IMG/VR virus record: IMGVR_UViG_3300021399_000003
Span: 32,001 to 96,000 of that record
Direction: 5' to 3' (one strand)
DNA: 64,000 nucleotides
Origin: a virus
Taxonomy: Duplodnaviria; Caudoviricetes
Position numbers and translations under genes: made by a program. A model generated the notes under the pieces. That model did no database searches. It was not told the origin of the DNA and saw only the letters and a list, made by a program, of their open reading frames with translations. Of the stretch, positions 40,317-59,815 are shown piece by piece (the first letter of the stretch is position 1; every line of letters starts with the position of its first letter).

Positions 40317-40389
40317 CAGGCGTGGCTGGATTTGAACCAGCGAATGCATGGGTCAAAGCCATGTGCCTTAACCACTTGGCTACACGCCT
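40317..40389 (-). tRNA. tRNA-Gln(UUG)
   Basis: Cloverleaf; CATGG-CT TTG AC-CCATG; followed by CTA. Confidence 0.92.
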
Positions 40390-41108
40390 ATAATTTTATT
40401 ATACCATTCTATTAGTTCTTTTTTCTTAGACGGAATATTATTTTTTACACACCATTTTACAACTGCTTTATCAGAAACTCCATATTTTCTGCCTACTGCA
40501 GAAAAACTAGATTCAACAATTTCTTTTGCCAGTTGAATACCTTGCGGGCGTGCAGATATTTTTTCTTGTCTTTCTTGTATTTTTTGTTCTTTTTGACGTT
40601 GTTTTTCGTTTCGAGCAATATCTATTAAAGACGGTCTAATAGGATAGATTAAATAATCTTTTCTCCAAGAAGCTCCACTATTAATTGCTCGAATAGTTCT
40701 TCCAGAAACATTATATTTTGCACCAATAATATCGCTATTATCTAATGTATTTTTTAAATCATTAACAATATTATTAAAAATTTCGTCCGTCATTTTAATT
40801 GCATGAGGAGCATTTTGACCACCTTCTGTTCGATTATATCCATTATTAAAACTGTCATAATAAGAAATCCAATATTTTTCTTTTTCATCTAATTCGGATA
40901 CAAGACATTCTTCTAATATTTCAAAAGAAAAATTATTTAATCCATACAATCTCATATCTTTATATAATGGATTATTATAATTGACTATATTATTACCTAA
41001 ATAATCTGTTCTATGATTTCTCCAACGAGTTTTAATATCTTGTGCTTGACCAATATAAACTAATCCATTTATTAAATTAGTTATTTTATAAATACCACAT
41101 TGTACCAT
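40380..41108 (-). CDS. GIY-YIG homing endonuclease
   Basis: GIYKITN..VYIGQA..RW, GYNRTEGG; stop lies within tRNA-Gln. Confidence 0.9.
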   Translation of the reverse strand: MVQCGIYKITNLINGLVYIGQAQDIKTRWRNHRTDYLGNNIVNYNNPLYKDMRLYGLNNFSFEILEECLVSELDEKEKYWISYYDSFNNGYNRTEGGQNAPHAIKMTDEIFNNIVNDLKNTLDNSDIIGAKYNVSGRTIRAINSGASWRKDYLIYPIRPSLIDIARNEKQRQKEQKIQERQEKISARPQGIQLAKEIVESSFSAVGRKYGVSDKAVVKWCVKNNIPSKKKELIEWYNKIIGV

Positions 41109-41626: not shown

Positions 41627-41722
41627 TGGCGACAGGCTTCGGACTTGAACCGAAACATCAGTATATACTAATTACTCTCTGATTAGCAATCAGATGCCTT
41701 ACCAAATTAGGCTTAGCCTGTC
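41627..41722 (-). tRNA. tRNA-Ser(GCU)
   Basis: TCTGA-TT GCT AA-TCAGA; long variable arm; GCCA. Confidence 0.9.
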
Positions 41723-42378
41723 TTATCATTATCTTGCCATTTCCAAATATAGCCATAAGCGATATTCCTTAGTCCTCGTGCGCATTGACTAATATGGTTA
41801 CTACCTGATTCTTTTCCTAAACTTTTTGCAGCAGAATAACAAGAATAAAATTTATTGATTAAATTACCATTTAAATCATATTGACATAAAATATTATAGT
41901 TATTTTTTATTTGTTTTTCATTAAATAAATCATTTTTTAATTTTATTTCTTTGTTCAAAATAGTAGATAAAACATTCTCTGCGGTATAATTTTCAATGAA
42001 AAAATTAACATTTTGATTTTTTTGTATAGGTGTAAAACTTAAAGTGATTTTATTAGAATAATTTTCACATTCTTGAACAGGAATTAAATAACATTGATTA
42101 TTAAAGTAAGTTGCAAATAAATCAATTTCATTACTAGAATAATTATGTTTAATGTTTTCTTTACCTGATGTTGTTAGACTATATAAATTAAATTCAATTC
42201 CAGTATCTTTTTCTTTACAAGTTTTTACTTGTATTTTTAACAATTTCAACTTAATATCTAATATCATATCATATCTGCAATCTTCTCCAATTGGAATGCT
42301 TATATTATATCCTAAAGAAGTAAGATATGCTTGACATAATAATTCTGTTGTGATTCCTTTAATTTTAGTATCTACCAT
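41713..42378 (-). CDS. PD-(D/E)XK free-standing homing endonuclease (group I intron-associated type) with NUMOD1-like tail
   Basis: KG..TE..SIP..RYD..KIQVKT..Y...IDLFATY; start moved to ATG at 42378 by RBS spacing; stop lies inside tRNA-Ser. Confidence 0.82.
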   Translation of the reverse strand: MVDTKIKGITTELLCQAYLTSLGYNISIPIGEDCRYDMILDIKLKLLKIQVKTCKEKDTGIEFNLYSLTTSGKENIKHNYSSNEIDLFATYFNNQCYLIPVQECENYSNKITLSFTPIQKNQNVNFFIENYTAENVLSTILNKEIKLKNDLFNEKQIKNNYNILCQYDLNGNLINKFYSCYSAAKSLGKESGSNHISQCARGLRNIAYGYIWKWQDNDKTG

Positions 42379-42386
42379 TTTTATCA

Positions 42387-42462
42387 CTCCTTTGATAAAA
42401 CTTTGTAGGGCTTGCGAAGGAGCGCATTATCTCATCAGTTAATTACTCTGATGCTACCCCTA
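42387..42462 (-). promoter_or_regulatory. Structured endonuclease-gene leader, copy 4
   Basis: TAGGG/CCCTA; CATCAG-AGTAATTAA-CTGATG; AGATAA; TGCG-CTCCTT-CGCA; loop pairs with RBS AAGGAG. Confidence 0.75.
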
Positions 42463-43430: not shown

Positions 43431-43444
43431 AAAATCCTTTCATC

Positions 43445-43556
43445 TAGGCACATTATTTTCTATTGCCCTACCTGCTGGGCGACATGCTAAATTTAGCACA
43501 ATCGGACTCGAACCGATGACTCATAGATTACCTATGTAAGTTGCTGTGTGCGCCTA
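43445..43556 (-). ncRNA. ACAGCAA stem RNA, copy b: circularly permuted tRNA mimic (YrlA-like Y RNA candidate)
   Basis: AGGCGCAC-ACAGCAA; T arm ATCGG-TTCGAGT-CCGAT, closed acceptor hairpin TGTGC..GCATG, D arm GCCC-AGCAGGTA-GGGC; ATGTGCCT. Confidence 0.7.
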
Positions 43557-45812: not shown

Positions 45813-46396
45813 ATACCCTATTTAATAAAACCGTTGCGGCCTTCGCCGTACTTGTATTATCCTTCTAACATATTCAACCACGTTGGAGATGAAGGCTGAG
45901 CCACGGGTAGCAATTCCGGACTTCTTCACCCCGTCTTTCGACCAACAACGGAGAGACTGTTTACTCTCAAATTTCACCTAAACCATTCAGCACAATAATA
46001 TCTAATCAAATCTATTAGATTCATTGTCGTTTTGGGCTACTTTTTCTGTGAACCTCGCTTATATCCTATTTCTAGGTTTCAACGACATCAAGCGTCTTGT
46101 TGGCATTTCCAAGGTTTGCGGTGGTAGCCAGCCACATCTAAAACGCCTAACTTGGATTCAGGTCACGCTTTTAACGCTCACCTTCTATTGCGACGCCGCG
46201 AGGAGCCAAGTTTTTGTTAGCGGATAACCAAGCACCTATCCTTAACATTAGGAGTTTCTCCATATCGCTAGTCATTACTGATTTCGCGGCCTTGGCTTGA
46301 AAGTATCCCATCAAGTTTGGGGCTGTTATTCAGATAGTCCAAGCAGAGTGGTTAGCTCTTCTTCACTTGGTTCAACCATTTTATTAAATAGGGTAT
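45813..46396 (-). ncRNA. Large structured RNA, ROOL-like
   Basis: 584 nt closed by a perfect 18-bp terminal helix (45813-45830/46379-46396), own sigmaA promoter at ~46450, no credible ORF, located in a tRNA cluster. Confidence 0.7.
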
Positions 46397-48084: not shown

Positions 48085-48218
48085 TGGTGCCCCAGACGGG
48101 ACTTGAACCCGTACACCCTCACGGATAGCGGATTTTGGTCGTGGGAAGGAGTGCTGCTCTCCAACAAGCCACTGGGCCCACGTAAGTCCGCTGCGTCTGC
48201 CAATTCCGCCACCAGGGC
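48085..48218 (-). tRNA. tRNA-Leu(UAA) interrupted in the anticodon by a 47-nt mini-tRNA insert (48136-48182)
   Basis: GCGGA-CT TA[insert]A AA-TCCGC; long variable arm; ACCA. Confidence 0.88.
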
Positions 48219-48938
48219 ATAAAAACCTGATGTAACCCTCACGCAGCTAGATGGTTACTTTGAATAGTACTTTAAGGTATACTGCTAATATATAGGCTAT
48301 CAGGCGTAGCCTTAACAAGTAAATGTGTGGTTGTTCGATATTTGCTCCTTTTATTTCTGAACCACACTAAGAAGCCCTTAAATCGACACTCCTCGAACAG
48401 GGTGCGTCCGCGACCATCACGCCGCTATGCATTGTTAACAATGGGCGATTTTTATCGTTGTTCGCCGCAACTACCTAGGTAATAAGTCTCCTAGTGGTGC
48501 GCTTCTTTGAGAGGCGTAAGGAGAACATTTGCGGTGGCGCCTCACAATTAACCGCAATTTCCCTTATAAAGCCCAGTGGGTGGACTCTGGCGCCGAAGTT
48601 TTATTTTCTAGTTTGTGGTGAACTTCAAACCCTTTATAAACTCCATTAATTGCTTCATACTAGAAAAGTAATTAATTTCATCGTTTCATAATCATCTTGT
48701 GATTATGCCGAATACGCTTTCACGTATTCTAAAACTCCTTGTACGCTTGGTACATGAGATAGCGGTGACGCCCTTCAAAAGTACTGGCCGCAATTTTTCG
48801 TTCAGCGTCTAATCCTGCCACTCATCAAGCTTTTCAGCTTGCTCACGGCGAGTCCAAGAAGAAGAAAATACAGTACGAGAAGTCTTACGCACAACTATCA
48901 TTCCTTTCCTTGTTTCTATAAATATTATATCACAATTT

Positions 48939-52323: not shown

Positions 52324-52965
52324 TTATGTGCTATTTTTATCGTATATCATATATTCCCATTTATATCCGCCAGTAGTCTTACGTTTTCCATTACATACTT
52401 CTTGAATATGATTACTGCGGCAACCAATAGCTTCTGCTGCCTCTCGTGCCGAAGAATACACTTTAATTAATGTACCATCTTTTAATAACTGTTTAACAGG
52501 TTTACTATACAAATGTTGCATAGTTTGATAACCTCTTAATATCCGTTCTTGTGATGGAATATCTTTTAAAGCTTGAGATACTGTTGTATCACAATATCCA
52601 GTAATTTCTTTAATAGATTTTTTACTATATCCCTCATTCCATAAATTAATAATTAATTCATAGCTGGCATAAGGTTTTCCATCGCCGCCAATAGTAGCAT
52701 TATAACCATTAGAAAATGAATTATAACTTTCAATCCAAAAACGTTCTTTTTCATCTAGTTCTTCCAAAGTGCATTCTTCTACTATTTCAATATGAAAATT
52801 TTCAATTCCATATTTATTCATGGCAGAATATAATGGACGATGTTCTTTTGATGACCGTTTTGCGTCTTTACAATGTTCTTTCCAACGACGTTCAATAGTA
52901 AAAGCAGTTTTGCCAATATAAATTTTTCCATTAATATCATTAATAATTTTATAAATGTATGGCAT
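52324..52965 (-). CDS. GIY-YIG homing endonuclease (NUMOD1-like tail)
   Basis: YIYKIIN..IYIGKT..RW, GYNATIGG, GGYKW. Confidence 0.9.
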   Translation of the reverse strand: MPYIYKIINDINGKIYIGKTAFTIERRWKEHCKDAKRSSKEHRPLYSAMNKYGIENFHIEIVEECTLEELDEKERFWIESYNSFSNGYNATIGGDGKPYASYELIINLWNEGYSKKSIKEITGYCDTTVSQALKDIPSQERILRGYQTMQHLYSKPVKQLLKDGTLIKVYSSAREAAEAIGCRSNHIQEVCNGKRKTTGGYKWEYMIYDKNST

Positions 52966-53849: not shown

Positions 53850-54070
53850 ATAGTATAAATACTATTATCGTCATATTGATTATTAGAAAATTGTTTAATC
53901 AGATCAATTGAAGTCATATGTAAAAGTCCATCTGAAGTTTTCCATGAAACCATTTTATTCTGCATTTTATTCTTATCTGCGGCGATAAGAATAATAAAAT
54001 CTTTAATTGTTATTTTTTCTAGTCCGCGTACTTTATTCCATCTCATACAAACTCTTTCATATCTTCCCAT
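53831..54070 (-). CDS. Hypothetical protein
   Basis: ORF track. Confidence 0.5.
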   Translation of the reverse strand: MGRYERVCMRWNKVRGLEKITIKDFIILIAADKNKMQNKMVSWKTSDGLLHMTSIDLIKQFSNNQYDDNSIYTIWEKIL

Positions 54071-54693
54071 TTAATTTTTACAATTATACGTTCGCCGCGA
54101 CGATTGCGCAATTCAATAGCAGGTCTACATACTACTCCTTCCATTTCACGTTCCTCTTCCGCGATTACAGAATTAGGATGGGTCTTTACATATTCTTCTG
54201 CTGCGTATAAGGAACCAGTGCCTACAATAGGCACAGCCTTAATTCCGAACATTTTTGCAGTTGTTTCTACCCATTCGCGCTCCTGATAGTTATCGCCAAT
54301 AAGCACATCAAAGAGAATAAAATCTACACCGTTGGGAATATACTTTCCACCGCCCTTCTGAATCTTGCGGCCATAACCTTCACCGAAAAGAATAACTTCC
54401 TTTTCGCCAAAAACCTGTTCAAAAATCTGAGCATTAACCTCACCGCCGAACAACTCATTCAAACGAGTAACAAGTTCTGCGGGAATAGCAGCATTATCGG
54501 TGCGACCACCAAAGGTAACAGTATGGCCATCCCAACATACGCGAATGTTAGTGCCATCAACCTTCTCAGTCCAAATCCAGCAATTATCGCTGAGATATTC
54601 TATAGTTGGGTCACGAAATACTCCCGGAAGTAGCTTTTTAGTTCCAGTTGTGTCTCTTTGATAGAGAGTATCAATCTTTTCATACTTTCTCAT
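54043..54693 (-). CDS. ATP-dependent RNA ligase (Rnl2-like adenylyltransferase core)
   Basis: YEKI, TEKVDGTN (motif I), FGEGYG, FDV, EGVV, KIK; no OB domain. Confidence 0.85.
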   Translation of the reverse strand: MRKYEKIDTLYQRDTTGTKKLLPGVFRDPTIEYLSDNCWIWTEKVDGTNIRVCWDGHTVTFGGRTDNAAIPAELVTRLNELFGGEVNAQIFEQVFGEKEVILFGEGYGRKIQKGGGKYIPNGVDFILFDVLIGDNYQEREWVETTAKMFGIKAVPIVGTGSLYAAEEYVKTHPNSVIAEEEREMEGVVCRPAIELRNRRGERIIVKIKWEDMKEFV

Positions 54694-54755: not shown

Positions 54756-55109
54756 TTAAATTTCCTTATATCCATAATGAGTAAGAAGTTGCCGCATATT
54801 TGCGACACCAACAGGATTCATGCTATGGATATGAAAACCTACAAGTGGAATTTGATTTTCTACAATATATTTACAAATATCATAACCTGATTTAGCAAGA
54901 GTGTCATCTATTTCATGCCCTTCACCCAAATCATGGTCAAGGTCAATAATTATATTATAAAACTCCTCATTATAATAGTTTAGAAAGAAAATTGCTTCTT
55001 CTACGCTACGGCAAGTAATAGGAATCCATTCCATATGGGTATAGTTACCCAACGTCTTGAAGAAAGTATCATCTTCACGAATATCATCTACATAGATATA
55101 AATATTCAT
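54756..55109 (-). CDS. Cyclic-phosphate-processing receiver-domain protein
   Basis: IYVDDIR, DLDHDLG, GYDICKY, IHSMNPVG. Confidence 0.8.
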   Translation of the reverse strand: MNIYIYVDDIREDDTFFKTLGNYTHMEWIPITCRSVEEAIFFLNYYNEEFYNIIIDLDHDLGEGHEIDDTLAKSGYDICKYIVENQIPLVGFHIHSMNPVGVANMRQLLTHYGYKEI

Positions 55110-55179
55110 ATCTCTCACCCTTTCTATAATTATTATACTATAATTTCTATATTTAGTCAAGAAAAAAGAAGATGAACTT

Positions 55180-55965
55180 TCATTCATCTTCTTCTTTCAC
55201 TAAATATTCATCACTAAATAACATTTCAAGAGTAATATTATCGCGTTCCCAGTATGGAATGCGAACGAGAGGAATGTTGTGGGAAAGGGCGTATTGATTT
55301 TTTTCTTTATCGCGTTGCTGCTGCTCTTTTAATCCATTTCGTGCCTGCCATTTGCCCCATGTTTCTTGATAATGTTGAATACCATCAAATTCAATTAAAC
55401 GGATTAATTCATTATTTTTATTATATATTCCAAAGTCATACCAATAAGGATGTTTATTTTTTCCTAGCAAATTATCAAATCGTACTTCAGGTTTAAAATT
55501 GATATTATTTTCTTTTAAAATTTTTGTTATATTAACTGCTCCAACTGATTTTTCTCTTTTTATACACCCACAAGAAATCGTATGTAAACTACGTAAATTA
55601 TTAGCATCTACATCGCATTCATTTCCGCAAGCACATTTACAATGCCATATGGCATTTTGACTTATGTTACTTCCAGTTTTATAAAGAGCAGTTAAATATC
55701 CAAATGTTTGACCAGTAATATCTTTAGTTAATTTATCACCTATAATTTTACTTTTCATACATCCACAACTGGTATCTCTTTGTAAATTACGAAAATTCTT
55801 TACACAATAATTTCCGCAATGTTTACATAAACAATTCCAAAAGGTATGAGTACCTTTGTTGGGAGCTCGTCCTATTATTTTAAAATTCTCATCTTCATAT
55901 CCAGTTCTATCTTTAAGTGTATTACCTGCTACACCATTAAACCACTGTAATTCTTCATATAACAT
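55180..55965 (-). CDS. Zn-repeat + Vsr/DUF559-like PD-(D/E)XK endonuclease (mobile)
   Basis: WNCLCKHCG/SCGC repeats; YDF, IEFDGIQHY, DKEKN, LVRIPYW. Confidence 0.8.
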   Translation of the reverse strand: MLYEELQWFNGVAGNTLKDRTGYEDENFKIIGRAPNKGTHTFWNCLCKHCGNYCVKNFRNLQRDTSCGCMKSKIIGDKLTKDITGQTFGYLTALYKTGSNISQNAIWHCKCACGNECDVDANNLRSLHTISCGCIKREKSVGAVNITKILKENNINFKPEVRFDNLLGKNKHPYWYDFGIYNKNNELIRLIEFDGIQHYQETWGKWQARNGLKEQQQRDKEKNQYALSHNIPLVRIPYWERDNITLEMLFSDEYLVKEEDE

Positions 55966-55989: not shown

Positions 55990-57522
55990 TTAATGAATGG
56001 GCTCATATCTCTTACTGTTCAGCTTTTCATACATCATGTCCTCAGCCTTCTTGCCAGACATAATCATTTCAAAGATTACAGGAGAGCAACCAGAAACAGT
56101 AGTTACGTCAGGGCCAACGTCCAAAACTGTATTATTACGTGCGTTTACATTCCAAAAAACAAGAGAAGGCATCTTGTATCCAGAATGGCTCCACTTATCA
56201 CGCATCTTATCCATAAAGGTTTGTACCTGATTGGCACTGTAGCCATTATTTCTATTCCAAGAGGAATATCCCTGTGCGGAATCAATTTCTTGGTCACTGA
56301 TAATGACAATGGTTTCAGGCATATCTGCCTGACGCAGATGATTCCGAACAGCAGTATTCAGCACAAGGTCAAATACAGACTGTAGATTGGTGTTTTCGCA
56401 AAGATTCGTCTTTACGATACGGTCAACCTTGTCGCAGAAGTCCACGCCGCGAGTCTCAACAAACTTCGCCGTGCGGCTGAAGCTGATGTAAGAGTTTGCG
56501 AAAGGTCCCTTATTACGCTCTGCGGCATAAAGAGCAAGAGAGACTGCGACATCAATAGGAGCAACGCTACCAGCACCACTCGTCATACTTCCGCTTGTAT
56601 CGGCGACAACAAGGGCATTCAGGGACATGCCATGGAAGTAATCAGTTAGATTCTCCCAATACTTGTTAATCATCAGGCGGTCGGTATTGTCAAGGGCAAT
56701 ATTACTGCCACGGCCATACCAGCTATAGTCCGAACCCATAAGCTTAATGGCCTTAGCAACCACATCATAAGGATATAGTGCGGCTGCATTAACCTTGGTA
56801 GAGGTATCCTTGGCAAACGCTTCATACTTCGCCTTGATTAGATCACGACGAGCAAAAGCGTTCTTATAAATCAGGCCAGCACGAGAAGGAATCTTGTCAA
56901 ATTCAATCTCATTCCAGCGATTTGTGGACATAAGGCGCTCCAGTACACGAATACGCTCACGAAGGTTAGAAAGCAGTACACGATACTGACGAGAGGTTAG
57001 ACCCATAGTATGGGCAGTTAGACGTCCATAACGCTTAGTCTTGGCAGAAGAAGCGTTCTCGGAAGCTGCCCACTTACCAGCAAGGGAAATAGCACCCTTG
57101 GTCTTGTAGTCAAGGGCAAGCTGCTTACCAAGAGCATATAGAGCCTCATGCTCACAGGAAGTCCCTACGAGAGCATATAGGTCGTCCCAGCGGCCATACT
57201 CAGCAATCTGGTCAAGATTGCGAAGTACAGCATCACGATCTACATCAGCAAGCCAATGTAGGCATACACGGAAAAATCTTCTTTCCCCTTGGCCGCCGCG
57301 CACGTCCCGCTCGTAGAATAGGCACTTTAGGGCATATACAGGGTTCTCCTGATAGGCTTCCTTAAAAAGCAGAATACAATCACTTTCGGTGCGCTGACGA
57401 TAAGCTGCGCCGAAAGAGAAGAGGTCATATAGCTTAGAGCTAGTAGTGGTTCGCGCAACAGCATGATTTTCGGTATACTTATAAGTATTTTGAGAAGCCA
57501 TAGCATTGTAAAGACGATTCAT
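55990..57522 (-). CDS. DUF2828 family TROVE/Ro60-like protein with vWA domain
   Basis: TEN, RDVRGGQGER, YGRWDDL, KW, LYPYD, VADTSGSM (MIDAS), ISD, FWNV. Confidence 0.85.
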   Translation of the reverse strand: MNRLYNAMASQNTYKYTENHAVARTTTSSKLYDLFSFGAAYRQRTESDCILLFKEAYQENPVYALKCLFYERDVRGGQGERRFFRVCLHWLADVDRDAVLRNLDQIAEYGRWDDLYALVGTSCEHEALYALGKQLALDYKTKGAISLAGKWAASENASSAKTKRYGRLTAHTMGLTSRQYRVLLSNLRERIRVLERLMSTNRWNEIEFDKIPSRAGLIYKNAFARRDLIKAKYEAFAKDTSTKVNAAALYPYDVVAKAIKLMGSDYSWYGRGSNIALDNTDRLMINKYWENLTDYFHGMSLNALVVADTSGSMTSGAGSVAPIDVAVSLALYAAERNKGPFANSYISFSRTAKFVETRGVDFCDKVDRIVKTNLCENTNLQSVFDLVLNTAVRNHLRQADMPETIVIISDQEIDSAQGYSSWNRNNGYSANQVQTFMDKMRDKWSHSGYKMPSLVFWNVNARNNTVLDVGPDVTTVSGCSPVIFEMIMSGKKAEDMMYEKLNSKRYEPIH

Positions 57523-59253: not shown

Positions 59254-59404
59254 TCGGGAACCTGGGACTCGAACCCAGGACACACGGCTTATTGGTCATG
59301 AAGGATAGATTTGAACTATCATTATCTTCTGCTAGACAGAAGTAGTTTTCCAATTTAACTTACTTCATGAAGGCCGCTGCTCTGACCTACTGAGCTAGTT
59401 CCCG
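59254..59404 (-). tRNA. tRNA-Ile(UAU) interrupted in the anticodon by a complete 77-nt tRNA-like insert (59293-59369)
   Basis: GCGGC-CT T[insert]AT AA-GCCGT; insert is a full cloverleaf ending ACCA. Confidence 0.88.
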
Positions 59405-59815
59405 ATAAATCTCGCGGCTTCTTCTCCTATTGGCATCTTCCGGGCCTCAATCCATCCGAGCCGCCACTTGATTCCACCGCGAATGTCGTTATGAAGGAGC
59501 AAACACTCGCGTTGTGTATACTCCAAGAAATATTTATGTATCATTTGCTCTTATTGGTAGATACTAGACCTCACCGCCTATTTTTCACGCACGGATTCGT
59601 GGCCACCACTAACGAGGACGACTTCCGCTGAATCAAATTATCACGGCCGACCCAGATACCGGGCAACCTCTTGTACTATTCCGGACTAGCTCTCGGTGCA
59701 AGCTCACCGGCATTCTATTCAGAGAATCATATTGTCGCGTTTGCCGTTTCAACAATATTAGCTATATCTGCTTATTTCTTTTGTTCGCGATACTGGCAGA
59801 AATAAGAACAGCCAT

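Follow-up and report, generated by a model that had tools for sequence, protein, structure and literature searches.

A tRNA-shaped insert in the anticodon of a phage tRNA-Ile(UAU) as a candidate intron for protein-only splicing

Introns that resemble tRNAs have been recorded in the tRNA genes of large phages. 'Enigmatic introns' were described in the tRNAs of Lak megaphages, one of which 'itself may encode a tRNA', together with tRNA alleles with and without an intron (Devoto et al. 2019, PMC6784885). In the Lak introns, a 5' hairpin and a linker precede a tRNA-like domain, which ends in ...CA directly before the 3' exon (PMC6784885, Table S6). A 2026 survey in Anim Microbiome likewise stated that introns of jumbo-phage tRNAs 'could encode another tRNA' (PMC13037316). 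Neither paper proposes or tests a splicing route, and a full-text literature search returned no mechanism proposed or tested for such phage tRNA introns. Here, we analyze a tRNA-shaped insert of 77 nucleotides (nt) within the tRNA-Ile(UAU) gene of an uncultured virus of the Caudoviricetes (IMG/VR record IMGVR_UViG_3300021399_000003). The record comprises 169,459 bp with direct terminal repeats, and the window analyzed here is its bases 32001-96000 (64,000 nt, G+C 35.7%).

Based on sequence comparison, we lean towards interpreting this element as a tRNA-shaped intron that tRNA end-processing enzymes excise and a phage RNA ligase reseals, and as one member of a probably mobile family. The split tRNA features all lie on the minus strand, within an island of tRNAs and non-coding RNAs that spans about 20 kb. 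The 5' exon of tRNA-Ile(UAU) (59370..59404, 35 nt) supplies the 5' strand of the acceptor, the D arm, the 5' strand of the anticodon stem, and C32, U33 and U34. The 3' exon (59254..59292) begins with A35, U36, A37 and A38 and continues through the 3' strand of the anticodon stem, the variable region, the T arm and the 3' strand of the acceptor to the discriminator A; CCA is not encoded. Between both exons, the insert (59293..59369) forms a full cloverleaf from N1 to ACCA. Read along the minus strand, the host tRNA thus runs CGGGAAC, D arm, GCGGC, C-U-U, the 77 nt, A-U-A-A, GCCGU, variable region, T arm, GUUCCCG and A.

A first-pass annotation of this DNA had described the insert as a complete cloverleaf inside tRNA-Ile(UAU), and every element that it listed is present on the minus strand (59369..59293). 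The acceptor CATGAAG/CTTCATG (7 bp) is followed by U8-A9, a 4-bp D stem (AGTT/AACT) whose 9-nt loop includes GG, a 5-bp anticodon stem (CTTCT/AGAAG) with the loop G-U-C-U-A-G-C, a variable region of 5 nt, the T arm GATAG-TTCAAAT-CTATC, discriminator A73 and CCA. Both the ARAGORN drawing and the cmscan alignment display the conserved tRNA core (U8, A14, G18G19, U54 U55 C56, A58 and the G53-C61 pair). ARAGORN predicts 13 tRNAs in the window, including a 'tRNA-Pyl (cta)' at exactly 59293-59369, and the isolated insert also returns a tRNA(cta) call. Scanned alone, it matches the Rfam tRNA model (RF00005) with 50.1 bits (E 1.2e-10), above the gathering score of 29, and no other Rfam family. This score is on par with that of the host tRNA, which the same model recovers across the insert as a 151-nt tRNA at 59254-59404 (50.8 bits). 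Folding the 151-nt precursor as RNA predicts both nested structures, with a z-score of -3.5 and none of 200 shuffles as stable.

The insert is located between U34 and A35 of tRNA-Ile(UAU). A related phage contig (relatives are designated here by L numbers) carries an uninterrupted allele at L004:7960-8036, with the loop CTTATAA, which ARAGORN assigns to Ile(tat) and which is 1 nt off the exons in the window. Excision of the insert brings CTT and ATAA together in a canonical anticodon arm. As the bases flanking the insert rule out sliding of the junction, this uninterrupted allele fixes both insert ends to the base. The default mode of ARAGORN overlooks the host tRNA-Ile completely. Its intron mode reports Arg(tct) for this locus, with the intron one base off, and this assignment was rejected on the evidence of the empty-site allele. 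The intron-mode calls Arg tct, Thr tgt and Val tac were discarded on the same grounds, together with loop arithmetic.

Comparative evidence indicates that purifying selection still acts on the split tRNA-Ile. Interrupted alleles share 98-100% exon identity with one another and with the empty allele, whereas their 300-nt flanks share 60-85%. The host acceptor stem varies by compensatory pairs only (CGGGAAC/GTTCCCG, CGTTCCC/GGGAACG, CGGGCAC/GTGCCCG and CGATCCC/GGGATCG). Two further tRNAs of this phage, Lys(UUU) and Leu(UAA), are split as well, and the genome contains no uninterrupted copy of any of the three. Their codons AUA, AAA and UUA occur at 24.5, 50.7 and 36.3 per 1000 in the long open reading frames (ORFs) of the phage, so that the split tRNAs together read about 11% of its codons. 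Such heavy use implies that the phage needs all three. In the Ile, Lys and Leu tRNAs alike, insert removal restores a perfect 5-bp stem and a 7-nt loop. Exon conservation, compensatory stem changes, the lack of intact copies and codon usage together suggest that the inserts must leave the RNA.

Relatives were retrieved through the neighboring DUF5662 gene and through sequence patterns, and 15 inserts in four tRNA species (Ile, Lys, Leu and Glu-like) were compared. Insert anatomy was measured by comparison, and the Lys insert was read by hand. Different inserts occupy the same U34/A35 site of tRNA-Ile(UAU) in different relatives. The CUA cloverleaf (76-77 nt) occurs in the studied phage, in L007/L008/L039 (L039 being the same contig as L007), in L040 and in L022. 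A degenerate cloverleaf of 74 nt takes its place in L005/L006 and L009, a 75-nt insert of the G3:U70 type with an oversized 'anticodon' loop in L037, and a bare minihelix of 45-47 nt in L002, L025 and L026.

The split tRNA-Lys(UUU) of the studied phage (42464..42606, minus strand) carries a 70-nt insert after U34 and scores 58 bits against the Rfam tRNA model across the insert. This insert shows the acceptor GGGGACT/GGTCTCC with G3:U70, the T arm GCCAG-TGCAATT-CTGGC and an ACCA end, and on its own gives no ARAGORN tRNA call. The split tRNA-Leu(UAA) (48088..48218, minus strand; Rfam tRNA 40.6 bits) holds a 47-nt minihelix with the acceptor CGTGGG/CCCACG, the T arm GGAG-AGCAGCA-CTCC, in which the T loop AGCAGCA is non-canonical, and an ACCA end. 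Its homologs in L005, L009 and L019 show compensatory change. As delimited, the Leu insert follows A35 (after CTTA), so no U precedes it; an alternative junction lies after U34, with the insert ending in ACC. Three relatives (L004:19447-19566, L007:12924-13043 and L019:17055-17174) contain a split Glu-like tRNA with a 44-nt minihelix, which is probably Glu(UUC) with the loop CTTT/CAA (the slash marking the junction). That insert apparently follows position 35 rather than 34, and its tail is ACCA in L004 and L019 and GCCA in L007.

Despite this range of forms, the architecture of the inserts is constant. In all 15, an acceptor helix of 6-8 bp begins at the first base, the T arm carries a loop of 7 nt, and an RCCA tail abuts the 3' exon. 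In every measured insert, acceptor pairs, offset and T-stem pairs add up to 12 positions, which corresponds to the canonical 7+5 stack, and the base preceding the insert is U, except for the Leu insert as delimited. The acceptors themselves are unrelated yet always paired (CATGAAG, CACGAAG, CATTCGT, GGAGTT, GGGGCTT, GGGGCG, GGGGACT, CGTGGG and GTGAGAT). Alignment of the 74-nt inserts of L005 and L009 with the cloverleaf is confined to the acceptor, positions 8-9, the T arm and ACCA. Their central part is unrecognizable; the tRNA score of these inserts falls to 16.4 bits, and each has a different 'anticodon' loop (CACCACT and AATTACT, respectively). The parts kept across the family are those that the RNase P, RNase Z and CCA-adding enzyme of bacteria recognize. 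Since sister inserts range from degenerate cloverleaves to minihelices, all with N1, T arm and ACCA, the sequences indicate that the shared and selected feature is a tRNA-processing shape, not the anticodon. The four cloverleaf variants preserve all 21 pairs; pair 1-72 changes from C1-G72 to G1-C72, and pair 30-40 appears as C-G, U.G or U-A. With so few variants, the covariation is not significant, 62 of 500 shuffles equalling its score.

Further cloverleaf homologs were sought by sequence pattern. An exact T-arm/acceptor pattern retrieved only L022 from viral contigs and only L039 and L040 from metagenomes, and a D-arm pattern matched no contigs beyond those already known. Neither pattern occurred in 185,579 bacterial and archaeal genomes. 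A 14-mer and a gapped junction pattern gave no real family member among the 117 matching loci listed, and about 2 Mb of chance-matched viral loci contained no further clear one. Among the cultured phages of INPHARED, the insert region and the uninterrupted allele returned nothing or generic tRNA similarity only. As for the origin of the cloverleaf, none of the 232 tRNAs predicted in the phage and its relatives exceeds 66% identity to it. In an unrelated viral contig, ARAGORN predicts a tRNA (L223:7914-8098) whose 99-nt intron holds the canonical GGTTCGAATCC T-arm motif and, on this basis, may be another nested tRNA-like insert.

Insert and exon histories conflict. Compared with L005, the studied phage shares 100% of exon positions, 68% of the insert and 85% of the upstream flank. 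The comparison with L022 gives 85% for the exons, 95% for the insert and 58-59% for the flanks, the latter being background for unrelated AT-rich sequence. Against L040 and L007, the inner exon core is identical, four acceptor pairs differ, the insert is 92-94% identical and the flanks are low. Identity is therefore restricted to the insert and the inner exon core. As the insert can be more conserved than the exons and does not follow exon lineages, the pattern suggests mobility among phages. It looks like gene conversion or homing in which the conserved tRNA core serves as homology arms, and inserts would spread between phages by recombination or homing in this core.

Candidate agents of such transfer are encoded nearby. 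Four free-standing homing-endonuclease-like genes are interspersed with the island tRNAs, all on the minus strand: two of the GIY-YIG type (40380-41108 and 52324-52965), one PD-(D/E)XK gene with NUMOD1 (41713-42387) and one HNH-like gene (55180-55965). One of them lies between a cREC_REC gene and a Ro60-like gene, both discussed below, and relatives possess such genes too. The GIY-YIG enzyme SegB of T4 targets the tRNA gene region of related phages. By analogy, the homing-endonuclease genes of the island may aid the spread of inserts or select for them, and an insert that breaks a homing target yet can still be spliced would be favored.

How the insert leaves the transcript can be narrowed down. 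Scans of the locus and the insert detected no ribozyme, group I core or other Rfam family and no bulge-helix-bulge motif, so that proteins would have to cut and join. Because both splice sites coincide with natural tRNA ends, the simplest model involves RNase P and a 3' endonuclease. Minihelices of acceptor and T arm are substrates of bacterial RNase P, which favors U at position -1 and base-pairs with RCCA. In Thermotoga maritima, RNase Z cleaves after an encoded CCA. The cuts of both enzymes produce 3'-OH and 5'-phosphate ends, and an ATP-dependent ligase can seal such ends with no prior healing.

In the proposed route, transcription of the Trp-Ile region would yield a precursor whose two nested structures both fold, in line with the fold prediction. 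Joint transcription of tRNA-Trp and the split tRNA-Ile is suggested by a strong promoter-like sequence on the minus strand at 60096-60068, with 11 of 12 matches. Host RNase P would mistake the insert for a pre-tRNA through its 12-bp acceptor/T stack, the U at -1 and the RCCA tail, and would cut between U34 and the first insert base, leaving a 3'-OH on the 5' exon. A tRNA 3'-end endonuclease, of the RNase Z/BN type or other, would then cut directly after CCA and leave a 5'-phosphate on the 3' exon; this step is the weakest of the model. The tRNA halves would be kept together by the acceptor, D and anticodon stems until the Rnl2-like ATP-dependent ligase of the phage joins them into tRNA-Ile(UAU) with the loop CUUAUAA. 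The CUA cloverleaf would represent the least degenerate version of the processing module, and the excised 77-nt RNA is most likely a by-product rather than a decoding tRNA.

The candidate sealing enzyme is encoded within the island. The gene at 54043..54693 (minus strand) specifies an ATP-dependent RNA ligase of 216 aa that consists of an Rnl2-like nucleotidyltransferase domain only (Pfam PF09414, E 3e-16; PHROG 548 'RNA ligase', E 9e-22) and weakly matches the T4 Rnl2 structure 1s68. PF09414 was matched in all five related phage records tested, in four of them above the family cut-off. Rnl2-like was the sole ligase type found in the phage, which contains no RtcB. Next to the ligase gene, a cREC_REC protein with a cyclic-phosphate-processing receiver domain (54756..55187, minus strand; Pfam PF20274, E 2e-16) is a possible RNA-end healing factor. 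A protein of 294 aa that combines an AAA_33 kinase with a weak HD domain is encoded far from the ligase cluster and outside the window (genome 125027-125911, minus strand; L268:1024-1908), and its domains make it a candidate RNA-repair polynucleotide kinase/phosphatase. No CCA-adding enzyme was found in the phage.

Several observations weigh against a route through RNase P and RNase Z. The phage lacks a gene for any protein of the RNase Z family, and encoded CCA blocks RNase Z in many bacteria. Rnl2 enzymes prefer nicks in duplex RNA over loops, and the phage ligase has the Rnl2-type catalytic domain only. The D and anticodon arms of the cloverleaf are kept with pair-preserving changes, which a pure minihelix signal would not need. 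The cREC_REC and kinase-HD proteins fit cyclic-phosphate chemistry. Finally, RNase P cannot set the 5' splice site of the Lak introns, because extra 5' sequence precedes their tRNA-like part.

These points lend some weight to a second scenario, in which the same intron is excised by a dedicated structure-specific endonuclease of phage or host origin, and end healing by the cREC_REC and kinase-HD proteins precedes sealing by the ligase, as in anticodon-loop repair by T4 Pnkp and Rnl1. The missing RNase Z, the Lak 5' site and the presence of a kinase and HD protein elsewhere in the genome all fit this scenario, as does the position of the ligase gene beside those of cREC_REC and the Ro60-like protein. 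Still, an unrelated nuclease would need neither splice sites at the exact tRNA ends in 15 of 15 inserts nor the 12-position stack, the U at -1 and the RCCA tail. Moreover, no candidate was found, and the nucleases of the island look like DNA homing endonucleases. We thus regard a dedicated endonuclease as unlikely, if conceivable, and retain excision by tRNA end-processing enzymes as the preferred reading.

A related question is whether the freed RNA serves a purpose. It is doubtful that the nested cloverleaf is more than an excision handle and that splicing frees a stable tRNA-like RNA of 77 nt, CCA-ended and with its own function. Such an RNA could act as a conditional amber suppressor whose loop opens once modified or bound, as a tRNA mimic that titrates a host defense enzyme targeting tRNAs, or as a supply for the Ro60-like/Y-RNA system of the phage. 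If so, one gene would yield two functional RNAs by protein-only splicing with RNase P, a 3' endonuclease and a ligase, a route with, to our knowledge, no demonstrated case in bacteria or bacterial viruses.

A related idea had been raised in the first-pass annotation, which saw in the CUA triplet a possible amber suppressor and thus two tRNAs from one locus. Under this explanation, the excised cloverleaf would be aminoacylated and read UAG, perhaps being released only upon splicing. We consider it improbable, despite features that favor it. As a tRNA, the insert reaches its 50.1 bits with U8, A14, G18G19, U33, a TTCAAAT T loop, A73 and encoded CCA; its anticodon stem shows pair-preserving changes; it is more conserved than the exons across phages; and one carrier, L022, is TAG-recoded. 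The first-pass annotation had proposed conservation of the triplet as a check, and CUA and the whole loop GTCTAGC are indeed invariant in all homologous inserts found. These comprise just four variants, which are 92-99% identical, so that their invariance carries almost no statistical weight; at the same site, sister inserts lack the conserved loop or the entire anticodon arm.

The structure of the loop argues against decoding. A decoding-type loop has 7 open nt with a pyrimidine at 32, U33, a purine at 37 (A37 after A36), and unpaired positions 32 and 38, from which the insert loop G-U-CUA-G-C departs. Among the stand-alone tRNAs of the phage group, none of 138 distinct sequences combines G32 with C38, position 32 being C or U in 137 of them, and G37 follows A36 in just 4 of 43 ordinary tRNAs. 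The minimum free energy fold pairs G32 with C38 and U33 with G37, giving a predicted 7-bp stem with a 3-nt CUA loop, which bears out the earlier suspicion that a G32-C38 pair may close the loop. In addition, G-C replaces C-G at pair 1-72, a change that would be poorly tolerated in an identity element, and no stand-alone copy of the insert tRNA was present in the viral, metagenome and bacterial genome collections.

The coding evidence points in the same direction. The studied genome uses the standard code, under which ORFs of at least 60 aa cover 89% of it; most of the gaps lie in the RNA island or, outside the window, in another group of short stretches without ORFs at genome 135-159 kb. Long TAG read-through frames are not in excess: of the 175 long ORFs, 27 stop at TAG, with a median in-frame extension of 8 codons compared with 7 for TGA. 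ORFs seen only when TAG is read as sense proved to be antisense artifacts or trivial extensions. TAG recoding of this genome was rejected on the basis of standard-code coverage and TAG extension lengths. The insert carriers L007 and L008 likewise have no convincing in-frame TAG among plus-strand ORFs of at least 120 aa, a single ORF of this set having TAG at codon 7 of its longest frame.

Other carriers differ in this respect. In L022, reading TAG as sense increases ORF coverage from 21% to 70%, and 6 in-frame TAGs lie within a radical-SAM ORF (L022:558-1856). This contig owns a separate canonical suppressor, a long-arm tRNA(CUA) with the loop CTCTAAA (L022:2330-2419). L025 encodes a 566-aa ORF with 5 in-frame TAGs (L025:2173-3873). 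Both L022 and L025 therefore appear to read TAG as sense, and the genetic code varies among the phages that share these inserts. The CUA triplet itself is most likely not used to read stop codons.

The ARAGORN label tRNA-Pyl was also rejected. It follows from the CTA triplet only, and the phage genome contains no PylS, including its C-terminal domain. The core of tRNA-Pyl, with a short D loop without GG and a 3-nt variable loop, is absent from the insert, which has G18G19, the TTCAAAT T loop and a 5-nt variable region. Because the label appears while the tRNA-Ile is missed, annotation pipelines will report a false suppressor at such loci, and possibly a false code change.

A scenario without splicing would make the tRNA-Ile gene a pseudogene, inactivated by a tRNA-like mobile element, or would have only the inner RNA made. 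Apart from the mobile appearance of the insert, the evidence described above opposes it: exons remain nearly identical while the flanks diverge, the host acceptor stem of interrupted alleles changes by compensatory pairs, three heavily used tRNAs are split alike in one genome, none with an uninterrupted copy, and insert removal always restores the anticodon stem and loop. This scenario is very unlikely. The chance of a self-splicing or archaeal-type intron (group I, small ribozyme or bulge-helix-bulge substrate) is close to negligible: group I introns do occupy the same U34/A35 position in bacterial tRNA-Leu(UAA), but the conserved P3-P8 core needs 200 nt or more, the insert has 77 nt (45 nt in relatives), neither Intron_gpI nor any other Rfam intron or ribozyme family matches at E up to 10, and a 5' site at the first base of a helix with a 3' site 4 nt past its end is not two 3-nt bulges around a 4-bp helix.

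Other components of the island are structured RNAs and genes. Between tRNA-Trp and the split tRNA-Ile, about 410 nt (59405-59815, minus strand) are 81-83% identical to relatives, with no ORF of at least 60 aa and no Rfam match; this segment could be a leader, a spacer or an unrecognized RNA. Rfam identifies a ROOL RNA (45818-46394, minus strand, 298 bits) and a drum RNA (48591-48686, minus strand, 60 bits). A YrlA/Y-RNA-like match (43441-43535, minus strand) remains sub-threshold, with 34 bits against a gathering score of 69. The Ro60-like DUF2828/DUF7788 gene (55990-57522) belongs to the same island as these three matches.

The interest of the element lies in the modeled protein-only splicing route and its apparent mobility, rather than in the CUA triplet. 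If the proposed route is correct, phages would splice tRNAs without a ribozyme or a splicing endonuclease, by borrowing two tRNA-trimming enzymes and a ligase. This would constitute a third way to remove tRNA introns, give phage RNA ligases a physiological role beyond damage repair and account for the 'enigmatic' megaphage introns reported since 2019. As the split tRNAs read such a large share of codons, splicing could be a control point or a vulnerability of phage translation.

Comparison with known systems places the element more precisely. The group I introns in the anticodon loops of bacterial and phage tRNAs, such as cyanobacterial tRNA-Leu(UAA), share the U34/A35 site, a patchy and mobile-looking distribution and an association with homing endonucleases. 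They are ribozymes of 200 nt or more, whereas the present insert is far shorter and has no group I core. In mascRNA at the 3' end of MALAT1 and in mitochondrial 'tRNA punctuation', an embedded tRNA-shaped module cut by RNase P and RNase Z also defines the ends of its neighbors, and the mascRNA family even matches the degenerate insert of L005 weakly (13.8 bits). Those systems are eukaryotic or organellar and their flanks are not rejoined, while the flanks here are tRNA halves that need ligation.

The T4 Pnkp/Rnl1 repair of PrrC-cut tRNA-Lys resembles the proposed route in that a phage ligase reseals a broken anticodon loop, the halves are paired and healing-type genes are present. It differs in repairing damage from host defense, whereas a programmed maturation step is proposed here, with an Rnl2-like rather than an Rnl1 ligase. 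The amber suppressor tRNAs of TAG-recoded phages (crAss-like, Lak and others) have CUA at the anticodon position, as does the insert, one carrier of which (L022) is itself TAG-recoded; their loops are canonical, in contrast to the G32/C38/G37 loop in this standard-code genome. The closest resemblance is to the Lak introns, with which the insert shares the location in the anticodon loop, an acceptor/T-arm domain abutting the 3' exon, intron-plus and intron-minus alleles, and a predicted position that is one base off. In the Lak introns of Table S6, the tRNA-like part is preceded by an additional hairpin and a linker rich in A/T, and the end is ...CA instead of ACCA, whereas the present insert consists of the tRNA shape alone, from N1 to CCA, in a 169-kb phage. 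It is best filed as a phage tRNA-shaped intron, set apart by its exact N1-to-CCA extent and its full cloverleaf.

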